IMG/VR virus record: IMGVR_UViG_2875697941_000001
DNA: 64,000 nt
Reading direction: 5' to 3' (one strand)
Source of the DNA: a virus
Lineage: Duplodnaviria; Heunggongvirae; Uroviricota; Caudoviricetes
Shown: one piece after another, positions 41,638 through 45,001 of the stretch
How the letters are laid out: every line of letters starts with the position of its first letter
How positions within the stretch are numbered: the first letter of the stretch is position 1
Notes under the pieces: model-generated
What the model was told of the DNA's origin: nothing
Database searches by the model: none
The model's input: only the letters and a program-made list of their open reading frames with translations
Position numbers and translations under genes: made by a program

Positions 41638-41654
41638 ATTGCTCTAATCATTTT
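41638..41654 (+). promoter_or_regulatory. C1 repressor operator upstream of ssb
   Basis: ATTGCTCTAATCATTTT, 19 nt upstream of ssb GTG. Confidence 0.6.
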
Positions 41655-42364: not shown

Positions 42365-43159
42365 ATGACAGCACAAAATACTAAAACCATTCAATACCGC
42401 CTGCGTAATGGCCAGAGTGTAGAAGTGACCATCAATAATGATGGTGTACCTGGCGAAAAGGTTTCTATCTCTGATCTGGCTATCGAAAAAACCATCATGT
42501 GCCACCTTGGCTTTACTGAAGAAGTGAGCAAAAAGCATGGTGTAGCTATCTGGCGCACAATGGATACTGGCATGCGCAGATTCATTACTGCTCGTACCCC
42601 TGGTATGACCATGATGGACCTCATACAGATTGCGCCGCTGTTTGAGTGTGAACCTTTGGATGTATTCAGCAATCCAGCTATCTGCCAGCAGTTATATGGT
42701 GAGATGAAACTCGCGGTTACCCCCATTGTGCTGCATGAAGGATCGCTTGCTGGCGTATGGAAAGTAGAGCGAATTTCAAGCTACATGCCATTCCACATCC
42801 ATGTCAACGGCGTAATCGCAGGTGAAAATCAACCTGTTTCCGTTATAAAGTCAGACCTCAATCGCGCAATTCTTGAAGCAAGTTGTCGAGTTATCGGCCT
42901 GGGCAAACAGTCTTATGTTTCCTTCCCGGCTGGTCCTGAAGGCCCGGCAGAAATTCTGATTATGGATGCTGATCTGCTCTGGCAAATACAGTTTCTGATT
43001 GGCAAAAGCATCATCCGTGCTGAAGAACTCGATCAGTACATTACCTGCACGATGACGGATGAAGTCAAAAGTGTGGCTATAGCCAATGCCCGGAACCTGT
43101 GTCGTGCTGCATTAACAGAACCGCAAGAAAACATTCCAGAAGAAACAGAAAGTGACTAA
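42365..43159 (+). CDS. hypothetical protein (264 aa)
   Basis: ORF with RBS-like AGAGAAAAGACT leader; no motif recognised; immediately upstream of HipA-like gene. Confidence 0.55.
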   Translation: MTAQNTKTIQYRLRNGQSVEVTINNDGVPGEKVSISDLAIEKTIMCHLGFTEEVSKKHGVAIWRTMDTGMRRFITARTPGMTMMDLIQIAPLFECEPLDVFSNPAICQQLYGEMKLAVTPIVLHEGSLAGVWKVERISSYMPFHIHVNGVIAGENQPVSVIKSDLNRAILEASCRVIGLGKQSYVSFPAGPEGPAEILIMDADLLWQIQFLIGKSIIRAEELDQYITCTMTDEVKSVAIANARNLCRAALTEPQENIPEETESD

Positions 43160-43356
43160 TAAAAACCCCGTCAGTTGGCGGGGAACTCCACGTCAAATGG
43201 CCAATTGTTATGTCAGCTAGCAGTTAAAGCGCCTAGTCATCATCTTTTAAAGAAGTCTTTTTAACTTACCTAAATTAGTGACACCTCCCGTTTTGCTTGC
43301 TATTGTACGCATTCATGAATCTATTCATTAATCTATTCACAATAGTAATTAAAACT

Positions 43357-44661
43357 ATGGCTATACATGCAACAACAATCCGTAATTTGCTCAATCAAGG
43401 TCCTATGACACCAAGACAATTGGTTGAAAGACTAGGTGTTAGCCAACCAACGATATCTAGAGCATTAAGAGATCTTGGTGATGAAATCGTTAGGATCGGA
43501 AATGGAAGATCTATTCAATATGCTTTACGAGACTCTTTTAGAGGATTCGAATCAGTCCCCATTTATCGTATAACTGAAGAGGGGTGTATTTGCGTTCTTG
43601 GTACTCTCATTCCGGTGAGGCCAGAAGGCTATGTTATGGTTGAGGAAGGGAAAAATAACAGGCATAGCGATGGGTTACCTTGGTGGTTATTTGATATGCG
43701 TCCACAAGGCTTCCTTGGAAGAGCATATGCATCAGCATATGCTCTTGAACTTAACCTTCCCTCAAATCCAGAGCAATGGTCAGATACTGACGTGATCAAA
43801 GCCTTACTTAAGCATGGGCATGATGTTGTTGGTAATTTGTTAATTGGAGAGCAAGCACGCACGCATTTTTTAGAGATGCAGCCTCCTGTTCCTGTTAATC
43901 GTGAAAGTGAATATCCTGTATTAGCTTTAGCTGCTGGTGAAGGTGATGTGCCCGGTTCATCTGCTGGAGGTGAACAACCCAAATTTTGTACTTTCACAGA
44001 GCGTGGACATGTATTAGTGAAATTCTCTGCGCCTAACGACACCCCTATAAGTGAGCGTTGGAGAGATCTCTTGTTTGCTGAACATCTCGCATTAAAAGTT
44101 CTGGGGGTAGAAACAGAAGTTTTTGATTATAACGGTCAGAGATTCTTGGAAATTCCCCGATTTGATCGTGTTGGTCAACTAGGTCGGGTAGGTGTATTCT
44201 CACTTCGTGCACTTGATGCAGAATTTGTTGGGAATGCAAGAGCAACATGGCCCTTGCTGGTTAAAGAGTTGGTAAAAAATAAGTGCGTCCATCCTGATGC
44301 GATTATTATAGCAACAAGGCTATGGTCTTTTGGTTTGCTAATAGGCAATACCGATATGCATAATGGTAACCTATCGTTTATTAGTAGCCACGGACGCCCA
44401 TATCATATTGCTCCAGCCTATGACATGTTACCTATGGGTTTTGCTCCACGCTCTGGGGGAGCAATATCTAATGAGCTTAGAAAAACAGCACTACCAGACT
44501 TTGTAAGTCGAAAAATATGGGATGAATCTCTTGAATTGGCTGAAAAATTTTATGCATTGGCCTGTGAGTCCGACAAATTCTCAGCTAACTTTACTCCATG
44601 TTTAGAAGCGCTACGCATCCACCTAGATGATTGTAAGATACGCATAGCCCGCCTGGCATAA
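43357..44661 (+). CDS. HipA-family Ser/Thr kinase with N-terminal HTH (YjjJ/HipH-like toxin-type kinase)
   Basis: HTH MTPRQLVERLGVSQPTISRAL; P-loop-like SSAGGEQPKF; catalytic GNTDMHNGNLSF (D-x-H-x-x-N); low-GC; ATG 43357 chosen over upstream in-frame ATG 43297. Confidence 0.8.
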   Translation: MAIHATTIRNLLNQGPMTPRQLVERLGVSQPTISRALRDLGDEIVRIGNGRSIQYALRDSFRGFESVPIYRITEEGCICVLGTLIPVRPEGYVMVEEGKNNRHSDGLPWWLFDMRPQGFLGRAYASAYALELNLPSNPEQWSDTDVIKALLKHGHDVVGNLLIGEQARTHFLEMQPPVPVNRESEYPVLALAAGEGDVPGSSAGGEQPKFCTFTERGHVLVKFSAPNDTPISERWRDLLFAEHLALKVLGVETEVFDYNGQRFLEIPRFDRVGQLGRVGVFSLRALDAEFVGNARATWPLLVKELVKNKCVHPDAIIIATRLWSFGLLIGNTDMHNGNLSFISSHGRPYHIAPAYDMLPMGFAPRSGGAISNELRKTALPDFVSRKIWDESLELAEKFYALACESDKFSANFTPCLEALRIHLDDCKIRIARLA

Positions 44662-44668
44662 ACAACAA

Positions 44669-44694
44669 ATCCCGCCGATTGGCGGGATTTCTTC
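44669..44694. terminator. bidirectional intrinsic terminator
   Basis: ATCCCGCC-GATT-GGCGGGAT hairpin followed by TTCTTC; on minus strand followed by TTTGTTGTTT. Confidence 0.6.
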
Positions 44695-45001
44695 AATATA
44701 CGATCTGGTCTGCATGATCACCAAAATCATCGTCGTCGTCCTCATCGCCACCATCTACTGCTGGCCAATCAACAAACCAGCCAGCGTAAAGATGCAGCGT
44801 TCGGAGAACATCACTTGCGGGAGCATCAAGGGTGTTAACGAATCCCATATAGCTATTGGGATTTGCCCCAGCTATGGCTTCAGCGATCATGTCCTCGGTA
44901 ATGTCACCGGAGATAATGCTTAAACGCCCGGAAACTTCTTCATTATCATCAAATTCGATAATGGCATCTCCGCCTAATGGCGCTGCGATTTTAATCTGCA
45001 T
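44693..45001 (-). CDS. hypothetical acidic protein
   Basis: 102-aa ORF with poly-Asp C-terminus, last gene of minus-strand dar-type operon. Confidence 0.45.
   Translation of the reverse strand: MQIKIAAPLGGDAIIEFDDNEEVSGRLSIISGDITEDMIAEAIAGANPNSYMGFVNTLDAPASDVLRTLHLYAGWFVDWPAVDGGDEDDDDDFGDHADQIVY

Follow-up and report, generated by a model that had tools for sequence, protein, structure and literature searches.

A solitary, helix-turn-helix-fused HipH/YjjJ-family kinase gene carried as accessory cargo by a P1-like phage-plasmid and preceded by a family-wide candidate operator array

We analysed a stretch of DNA of 64,000 nucleotides (IMG/VR virus record IMGVR_UViG_2875697941_000001; hereafter the window, meaning the whole stretch), which is a P1-like phage-plasmid of Escherichia coli, and focused on one of its genes, hipH, at 43357-44661. 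The gene encodes a HipA-family Ser/Thr kinase with a fused N-terminal helix-turn-helix (HTH), stands alone both here and at all related loci examined, and is accessory cargo of the phage-plasmid rather than part of its backbone. Upstream of its start codon lie three direct repeats with an ATTCA core, and the same array recurs upstream of homologues throughout the family. Taken as a whole, the evidence makes it reasonably probable that hipH is a captured single-gene toxin that regulates its own expression and serves the lysogen as a conditional growth-arrest switch.

The coding sequence and its functional motifs are located as follows.

43357..44661, + strand: hipH/yjjJ coding sequence, 434 amino acids (aa), predicted HTH-fused HipA-family Ser/Thr kinase toxin (from the list of open reading frames (ORFs), NF007297, Pfam and the alignment to K-12 HipH)
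43366..43485, + strand: N-terminal winged HTH, aa 4-43, with the recognition helix SQPTISR at aa 29-35 (Pfam HTH_5, MarR_2 and others)
43957..43986, + strand: Gly-rich ATP-binding loop SSAGGEQPKF, aa 201-210 (alignments)
44344..44379, + strand: catalytic motif GNTDMHNGNLSF, aa 330-341, with D333, H335 and N338 (invariant in HipH homologues and HipA)
44407..44436, + strand: Mg2+-binding motif IAPAYDMLPM, with D356 (P353, Y355 and D356 invariant, HipA included)

Profile searches and alignments confirmed a full-length gene of the HipH/YjjJ kinase family, complete and functional in appearance. The protein scored 533.6 bits over aa 4-434 against the NCBIfam equivalog NF007297, 'type II toxin-antitoxin system HipA family toxin YjjJ' (cut-off 401, E=3.5e-160), and 56.9 bits over aa 201-363 against Pfam HipA_C (cut-off 30.5, E=2.9e-15), while aa 4-42 matched HTH_5 with 29.5 bits (cut-off 22) and MarR_2 with 28.7 bits (cut-off 27). 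It is 35% identical over its full length to K-12 HipH (b4385; E=6e-90), and blastn found no nucleotide similarity to chromosomal hipH. From the equivalog score, together with best hits that are all annotated as YjjJ, we infer membership of clade X. An identical gene has already been named yjjJ by the Prokaryotic Genome Annotation Pipeline (PGAP) in RefSeq plasmids (WP_024192174.1 on NZ_CP097097); the identification is in public annotation, and what is new is a diverged, phage-plasmid-borne member of a known family. The mechanical ORF call opens at TTG 43297, and homologues align residue by residue from ATG 43357. The profile phrog_30447 (448 positions) matches the protein from profile position 15 onwards, implying that at least one deposited phage or prophage annotation starts at ATG 43315, inside the repeat array; alignment of the homologues favours 43357 over 43315. 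These results agree with an earlier note on this DNA, which had described an ORF at 43357-44661 on the + strand with an N-terminal HTH, a kinase of the HipA family and YjjJ/HipH type, and catalytic residues expected to be conserved: the ORF and all quoted motifs are present, both HTH profiles exceed their cut-offs, the family assignment is borne out by HipA_C and the equivalog, and the catalytic residues are invariant in an alignment that includes both K-12 HipH and HipA.

That alignment comprised the hipH protein, K-12 HipH, HipA and seven relatives. The HTH motif MTPRQLVERLGVSQPTISRAL (aa 17-37) aligns to the HTH of K-12 HipH, and all nine HipH sequences in the alignment share S29, Q30, T32, S34 and R35 of the recognition helix. 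Among the HipH proteins aligned, the GSSAGGEQPKF loop does not vary, and K222, in HVLVKF, is conserved. The loop serines S201 and S202 correspond to the K-12 HipH autophosphorylation sites S200 and S201. S201 is invariant even when HipA is included, aligning to the serine in the Gly-rich loop of HipA that we take to be autophosphorylation site S150, whereas S202 is conserved in all HipH sequences aligned and replaced by Val in HipA. The K-12 study lists S200, S201 and S217 as autophosphorylation sites (PMC9948734), and the last of these falls within a loop that is deleted in phage-plasmid HipH. Sequence and profile searches of the PDB matched only HipT and HipA, and no HipH structure; GNTDMHNGNLSF aligns to the catalytic loops of the HipT and HipA chains. 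An AlphaFold2 (AF2) model, built from a low-diversity alignment of 38 sequences, had a mean predicted local distance difference test (pLDDT) score of 55 and a predicted template modelling (pTM) score of 0.47, with aa 1-60 forming a confident helical/winged domain (block mean pLDDT 75-88). Its overall confidence was too poor for a fold search or for domain packing, and the model was dropped in favour of the PDB profile search.

K-12 HipH is the closest characterised protein in architecture. Both combine an HTH with a HipA-type kinase (434 versus 443 aa), are monocistronic and have no linked antitoxin; both have the two-serine Gly-rich loop, the D-x-H-x-x-N motif and the Mg-binding D; and both genes are preceded by the same array, with CTATTCA repeats at 12-bp spacing. 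They differ in being only 35% identical and in carriage by a phage-plasmid rather than at the chromosomal deoD-lplA locus. The K-12 work (PMC9948734) describes HipH as a toxic kinase of the Ser/Thr type whose substrates are RpmE, CsrA and HipH itself and which affects ribosome assembly and cell division; kinase-dead mutations lowered its toxicity. By analogy, the phage-plasmid protein should likewise autophosphorylate, phosphorylate host proteins and be toxic on overproduction.

A different origin of toxicity has to be weighed here. In a study on uropathogenic E. coli (UPEC; PMC11452175), the HTH of HipH was needed for toxicity and HTH deletions were non-toxic, a mutant lacking the catalytic motif was still toxic, and the protein localised to the nucleoid and cleaved DNA in vitro. 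If these claims carried over, toxicity would be HTH-dependent DNA damage by a DNase, and the kinase core would be regulatory or vestigial. Several results speak against this. The kinase catalytic residues are strictly conserved in 9-10 aligned homologues from several genera. The peptide patterns used to retrieve species homologues, AGGEQPKF and N[TS]DMH[HNA]GN, both cover kinase motifs and gave at least 594 matches in the species genome scan. The coding sequence appears to be under purifying selection (see below), and neither Pfam nor NCBIfam detected a nuclease domain in the protein. Finally, the loss of toxicity in kinase-dead K-12 HipH, as reported in PMC9948734, runs counter to a dispensable kinase. 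We regard the DNase account as improbable for this gene.

The search for a partner antitoxin was negative throughout, in keeping with the earlier note, which had seen no HipB next to the gene and had judged the upstream 264-aa ORF, by eye, to be unrelated. The 197-nt leader contains only ORFs of 21-39 aa, none with a family match. Six further ORFs, which lie inside hipH or antisense to it, likewise match no family and were rejected as antitoxins. An Rfam scan of the cassette returned nothing above threshold, and a BSnc120 match (22 bits against a gathering score of 114) was set aside as noise, being the terminator hairpin. The upstream ORF is P1 IsaA, a backbone protein with no HTH and no detectable domain. 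The downstream Hxr, labelled an "Xre homologue" in the P1 annotation, gave no BLASTP alignment to HipB and no Pfam match even at E=10; neither protein was retained as a candidate. Around the homologues in 80 species loci, the 665 neighbouring ORFs contained no conserved partner, the largest cluster spanning 6 loci. The gene has its own promoter-like site and terminator, and the family survey treats HipH as a monocistronic clade of Hip kinases (PMC8262856).

Because the upstream gene is isaA, whose product lacks an HTH, and Hxr is unlike HipB, the locus is not a canonical type II HipBA module. Its kinase core is homologous to those of HipBA and HipBST, as judged from HipA_C, the PDB matches to HipT and HipA and the aligned catalytic residues, but it has no HipB or HipS partner gene and its DNA-binding function is fused in cis. 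The targets of HipA and HipT, GltX and TrpS, are not established for HipH (PMC8262856, PMC9948734). The 2021 survey proposes the HTH of HipH as a cis-acting regulator or antitoxin, and gives the control of HipH activity as unknown (PMC8262856).

The solitary arrangement also bears on plasmid addiction, in which post-segregational killing would stabilise the plasmid prophage. A Klebsiella plasmid hipBA is reportedly, going by the title of the work, a potent plasmid stabilisation system, and hipH occurs on two unrelated phage-plasmid lineages. Post-segregational killing is nonetheless unlikely, because no separately encoded labile antitoxin was detected and an HTH in cis would be lost together with the toxin; moreover, reference P1 already has a known addiction module, phd-doc (PMC9603915). 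Among abortive infection, addiction and exclusion, the roles suggested earlier, addiction is the least likely, and we give it very little credence.

The region between the upstream gene and the start codon contains two predicted regulatory features.

43278..43306, + strand: sigma-70-like promoter GTGACA-17 nt-TATTGT with an extended -10 TG (consensus scan)
43311..43339, + strand: ATTCAtgaatCTATTCAttaatCTATTCA, three copies of a direct repeat with an ATTCA core, spaced 12 bp apart; candidate operators of the HipH winged HTH (repeat finder)

The first ATTCA core starts 4 nt after the TATTGT box. At least three exact ATTCA copies in a 12-nt register were found upstream of hipH in 58 of the 80 species loci, whereas the same chain of three was absent from elsewhere in 2.19 Mb of homologue flanks on both strands, and within the window it is unique to the hipH leader. 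When one mismatch per core was allowed and the geometry was counted over 72 homologous loci, 3-4 copies stood in register in 61, and in 51 the final core stopped 5 nt short of the start codon. Within 22 nt upstream of the first core, 64 loci had a TAnnnT hexamer, at a distance of 4 nt in 36 and 2 nt in 13. None of the 72 had a Shine-Dalgarno-like motif at the hipH start. Across the family the repeat unit has the approximate consensus tAtCTATTCAtn, and the array precedes homologues from Enterobacterales to Betaproteobacteria, including K-12 hipH (~7725-7766 of the K-12 stretch). In the window a fourth repeat, present in other Enterobacterales, is degenerate, which explains the 17-nt gap before the ATG.

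Sequence variation is consistent with a constraint on the cores. The leaders of two P1-borne alleles differ at 11-12 of 197 positions; the ATTCA cores are free of them, and the spacer that separates core one from core two has two. The ATTCA-bearing loci that were sampled also had the SQPT-SR recognition helix. A distant clade (38% identity, IMG/VR contigs) departs from this: the helix reads TRPT/TRTT/NRMT-LSR, and two ATTCGT-type repeats stand 12 nt apart upstream of the ATG; these joint differences are a possible case, and the single one, of covariation between protein and operator. Taken together, the repeats are probably operators of the fused winged HTH that mediate negative autoregulation. 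No mention of the array was found in PMC8262856, PMC9948734 and PMC11452175, in which the words 'repeat' and 'operator' were not specifically sought, and the literature found contained nothing on a P1-borne hipH or on HipH operators and autoregulation.

A 17-nt inverted repeat (43290-43306 and 43339-43355) encloses the array and abuts the start codon, with a predicted fold of -17 kcal/mol (z = -2.7). We considered a leader hairpin that masks the start codon in read-through transcripts and rejected it, as the second P1 allele has two non-compensated changes and a different fold (-9.1 kcal/mol).

We propose the following mechanism. In the lysogen, the winged HTH would bind the three ATTCA repeats, which begin just past the -10 box and cover the predicted transcription start, and would hold hipH transcription low by negative autoregulation, taking the DNA-binding role that HipB has for HipA. 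Should HipH rise above its set point, the kinase would phosphorylate host proteins and arrest growth and division; by analogy with K-12 HipH, its targets may be ribosomal protein L31 (RpmE), CsrA and HipH itself. Such a rise might be triggered when the repressor function is titrated or when transcription of the C1-controlled ssb-isaA operon reads through. The benefit would most likely be a conditional growth-arrest switch, a lysogenic conversion towards phage exclusion or stress tolerance.

Several points weigh against this proposal. The operator role is drawn from co-occurrence and the one covariation case, and since the repeats also lie in the 5' leader they could act at the RNA level. An Aeromonas phage-plasmid homologue keeps an SQPTLSR helix but has only one ATTCA upstream, the -10 box is weak (TATTGT here, TATGGT in allele 2), and the fourth repeat is degenerate. 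As the protein is only 35% identical to characterised K-12 HipH, its substrates may differ. The toxicity of K-12 HipH is known from overexpression only, and one study ascribes HipH toxicity to the HTH-dependent DNase rather than the kinase (PMC11452175). PADLOC has no model matching the hipH protein, and with ~10 of 140 (~7%) immediate neighbours of homologues being defence genes, a defence role is unsupported by context. The AF2 model (pLDDT 55) is too poor to probe how the domains pack.

The cassette that carries hipH and its surroundings are as follows; strand is not assigned to the two hairpins.

42365..43159, + strand: isaA, P1 backbone gene (phrog_2326, E=9e-149; DNA homology to P1 isaA ends exactly at the stop codon)
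43166..43183: hairpin CCCCGTCAGTTGGCGGGG at the left boundary, a copy of the isaA/hxr terminator that has diverged (terminator scan; RNA fold -15.5 kcal/mol)
43184..44663, + strand: inserted cassette of ~1.48 kb, GC content 0.416 (junction alignments against SJ46, P1, Ro157c2 and P7)
44667..44690: right boundary hairpin AAATCCCGCCGATTGGCGGGATTT, predicted bidirectional terminator common to hipH and hxr, P1 backbone (terminator scan)
44693..45001, - strand: hxr, P1 backbone gene, 102 aa (phrog_2292; P1 annotation)

The gene order is lyz / ssb - isaA - hipH / hxr - ddrB - darA. The flanks are 96-98% identical to P1, P7, SJ46 and relatives, and a 3.5-kb stretch matches plasmids including pEC258-2 (NZ_CP097097) at 100%. 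IsaA, of 264 aa, has no Pfam, NCBIfam or PADLOC match. We set the limits of the insert by alignment to the empty isaA-hxr site of phage SJ46, where the isaA stop codon, a single bidirectional terminator hairpin (3728-3757 of the SJ46 stretch) and the hxr end follow one another. Homology to SJ46 continues to 43182, through the left hairpin copy, and resumes at 44664, before the right hairpin, whose arrangement is identical at the empty site. The left hairpin (43166-43183) has a T-run on the minus strand only. That the isaA/hxr hairpin is single in SJ46 and doubled around the cassette marks it as a possible recombination or insertion point of this P1 hot spot.

The isaA-hxr slot is variable region 2 of P1-like phage-plasmids (PMC9603915), and with P1 backbone homology on both sides hipH is accessory cargo of this Punavirus region. 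Its occupants vary: reference P1 carries IS1 and isaB (4150-5656 of the P1 stretch compared), P7 carries the nmpC porin gene (2297-3412 of the P7 stretch compared) and has lost isaA, and Ro157c2 carries a hypothetical ORF of 95 aa (3974-4261 of the Ro157c2 stretch compared). Compared with the cargo of P1, P7 and Ro157c2, and with the empty SJ46 site, the hipH cassette shares the slot and the character of low-GC accessory DNA, but the genes are unrelated, and hipH is the sole toxin or kinase among the variants inspected. The earlier note's observations on setting are consistent with these data: the phage-plasmid nature of the replicon, the position between ssb and a dar-type operon, and an AT-rich composition relative to the flanks (the cassette's GC content compares with 0.503 and 0.499 in the 5-kb flanks and 0.478 in the whole window). 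Its further statement that the gene lies where reference P1 has isaA-IS1-isaB holds for the slot but needs amendment for the extent of the replacement, as isaA is retained. Because the upstream ORF is P1 IsaA itself, IS1-isaB of reference P1 is all that has been replaced.

The C1 repressor site nearest the cassette stands upstream of ssb.

41638..41654, + strand: C1 repressor operator Ossb, upstream of ssb-isaA (pattern search; P1 annotation)

Searching with the C1 operator consensus ATTGCTCTAATAAATTT and up to 3 mismatches gave 11 matches in the window (8296-41654) against 0.25 expected, an observation consistent with an intact P1 immunity network. Scanning 43160-43356 revealed no C1 operator in the cassette, and direct C1 control of hipH was rejected. 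The left hairpin has no U-tract on the + strand, and transcripts of the C1-controlled ssb-isaA operon may therefore extend into hipH after induction. This would also fit a role as a host-takeover kinase in the lytic cycle, with HipH made by such read-through and remodelling translation and metabolism in the manner of T7 Gp0.7; hipH points in the same direction as ssb-isaA, the intervening hairpin is without a + strand U-tract, and the C1 operator is at ssb only. The cassette, however, has its own family-typical promoter and operator, and hipH must be dispensable for lytic growth, because ~94% of P1-like elements lack it, as do all 20 P1-like records of deposited phages. We therefore hold a takeover function to be quite unlikely and prefer the self-regulated switch, for which read-through would be one possible trigger.

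In sequence collections, hipH is a minority variant of P1-like elements. The full stretch is present in 29 of the 510 PLSDB records that match the region (P1-like), and the full gene in 25 of 5,426 complete E. coli genomes, in which blastn in 'distant' mode found P1-like copies only. It is missing from all 20 P1-like records of the deposited-phage collection, and tblastn of 50,697 phage genomes found no HipH homologue. The assembly collection lists the identical protein in 1,264 index blocks, chiefly on contigs of 20-200 kb, and the 24 longest of these contigs share the same gene context. Many carriers are urinary (clinical urine) or animal-gut/livestock isolates, sources that reflect sequencing bias.

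This distribution invites the view that hipH hitch-hikes as neutral cargo and has no function under selection in the phage-plasmid: by either count only a minority carries it, and the slot accepts unrelated cargo. Such drift is hard to reconcile with the state of the gene. The ORF is intact in all copies read, and the two P1-borne alleles, which are ~98% identical in amino acids, differ by 14-15 synonymous and 8-10 non-synonymous changes, giving a ratio of non-synonymous to synonymous substitution rates (dN/dS) of 0.17-0.20, which is consistent with purifying selection on the coding sequence within the P1 lineage. In addition, the operator cores are kept while the spacers drift, and the identical protein is widespread. 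Neutral carriage thus appears improbable.

The nearest relatives, 67-72% identical over the full length, are chromosomal YjjJ proteins of Pantoea, Serratia, Gibbsiella, Enterobacter and Erwinia. They have the same length and are solitary; they have four ATTCA repeats, whereas the P1 copy has a degenerate fourth repeat and is far poorer in GC (0.42). A search of 5.8 billion clustered proteins gave no relative closer than 72%, and for this reason no donor can be named. A HipH homologue is encoded by 45 of the 72,556 PLSDB plasmids, of which 30 are E. coli P1-like with at least 95% identity. Five Aeromonas plasmids of 111-135 kb carry copies 54-56% identical; the one inspected, A. caviae pKAM329_1 (NZ_AP024137.1), is a siphovirus-type phage-plasmid that encodes a terminase, major capsid, tape measure, tail fibre, holin, ParA/ParB and a DnaB-like helicase, and its hipH sits in a run of small early-type genes, on the opposite strand. 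Capture of hipH has taken place independently in two phage-plasmid lineages that are unrelated, the P1-like one of E. coli and the siphovirus type of Aeromonas; being two events only, this is an anecdote and not a trend.

A further mobile association was seen outside phage-plasmids. The Enterobacter cloacae IncC plasmid pCC32 has a 69.5%-identical hipH beside a sil/cus copper-silver efflux cluster, and on the Enterobacter sichuanensis chromosome a ~69%-identical hipH lies immediately downstream of a cusCFBA/sil cluster. On pCC32, which is conjugative, the arrangement is flanked by IS30 and ISNCY elements. Given the common sil/cus neighbourhood on chromosome and plasmid, hipH appears to have moved with a metal-resistance island.

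As to what a growth-arrest switch would do for the lysogen, one option is a single-gene module for abortive infection or superinfection exclusion. The lysogen would keep HipH silent until an infecting phage released it, for example by shutting off host transcription or by titrating the HTH; the kinase would then phosphorylate translation or division factors, so that the infected cell produces no progeny. Tight autoregulation together with a toxic product is typical of abortive-infection toxins, and the gene sits in an accessory hot spot of P1. HipA-family kinases have been validated as anti-phage effectors in the two-gene HipAD system (DS-6; DefensePredictor, PMC13092281), where a catalytic residue is needed for phage defence; HipAD shares the kinase family with phage-plasmid HipH but has a DUF3037/DUF1829 partner, whereas hipH is solitary, HTH-fused and without a matching PADLOC model. 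The ~10 of 140 homologue neighbours noted above are type I/IV restriction, BREX (BrxA), PbeA and PDC (PDC-S05) genes. The Gibbsiella quercinecans homologue (stretch 1-5766) adjoins a complete, divergently transcribed type I hsdR-hsdS-hsdM operon.

On the other side, most homologue neighbours are housekeeping genes, and PADLOC-DB v2 gave no significant model for the hipH protein: the best match was to a WYL/HTH model (E=2e-4), and a weak partial match to PDC-M03A (E=1e-3) covered ~30 residues of the catalytic loop. Furthermore, no trigger-sensing component was identified, and the literature found contains no HipH-type gene tested against phages. A dedicated abortive-infection function is thus conceivable, but we would not expect it.

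Alternatively, low or heterogeneous HipH could convert the lysogen to stress or antibiotic tolerance, or to persistence in biofilms, by making a fraction of cells dormant. As described in PMC11452175, UPEC hipH acts downstream of cyclic di-GMP (c-di-GMP) in persister formation and is regulated at its promoter region. The phage-plasmid gene and chromosomal hipH share one promoter and operator architecture, and the urinary and gut sources of many carriers would suit such a benefit. These sources are, however, subject to the sequencing bias mentioned above, the host already has a chromosomal hipH, and in K-12 overproduction of HipH did not raise antibiotic tolerance (PMC9948734). Tolerance as the selected role strikes us as unlikely.

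The presence of a host copy raises one more scenario. With the same operators and recognition helix in host hipH, the phage-plasmid copy could cross-regulate the chromosomal gene or be cross-regulated by it. In its strongest form, hipH would be a one-gene immunity or growth-arrest switch wired into host hipH through common operators, and its capture by two phage-plasmids would reflect selection linked to their lifestyle. We put this forward as speculative and rather doubtful.

No other characterised Hip kinase is as poorly understood as HipH, and the later papers conflict over its activity, kinase or DNase. The locus described here adds a natural, mobile and diverged copy that keeps every catalytic residue and the upstream repeat array, and shows that P1 variable region 2 carries a toxin-family kinase gene in ~6% of sequenced P1-like plasmids. 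The main new outcome is the family-wide, operator-like ATTCA array: if the fused HTH binds these repeats, this would explain how a toxin is restrained without an antitoxin gene. Should hipH alter phage exclusion, tolerance or the expression of host hipH, it would constitute a new lysogenic-conversion trait of P1-like phage-plasmids; otherwise, it is a correctly annotated accessory gene.

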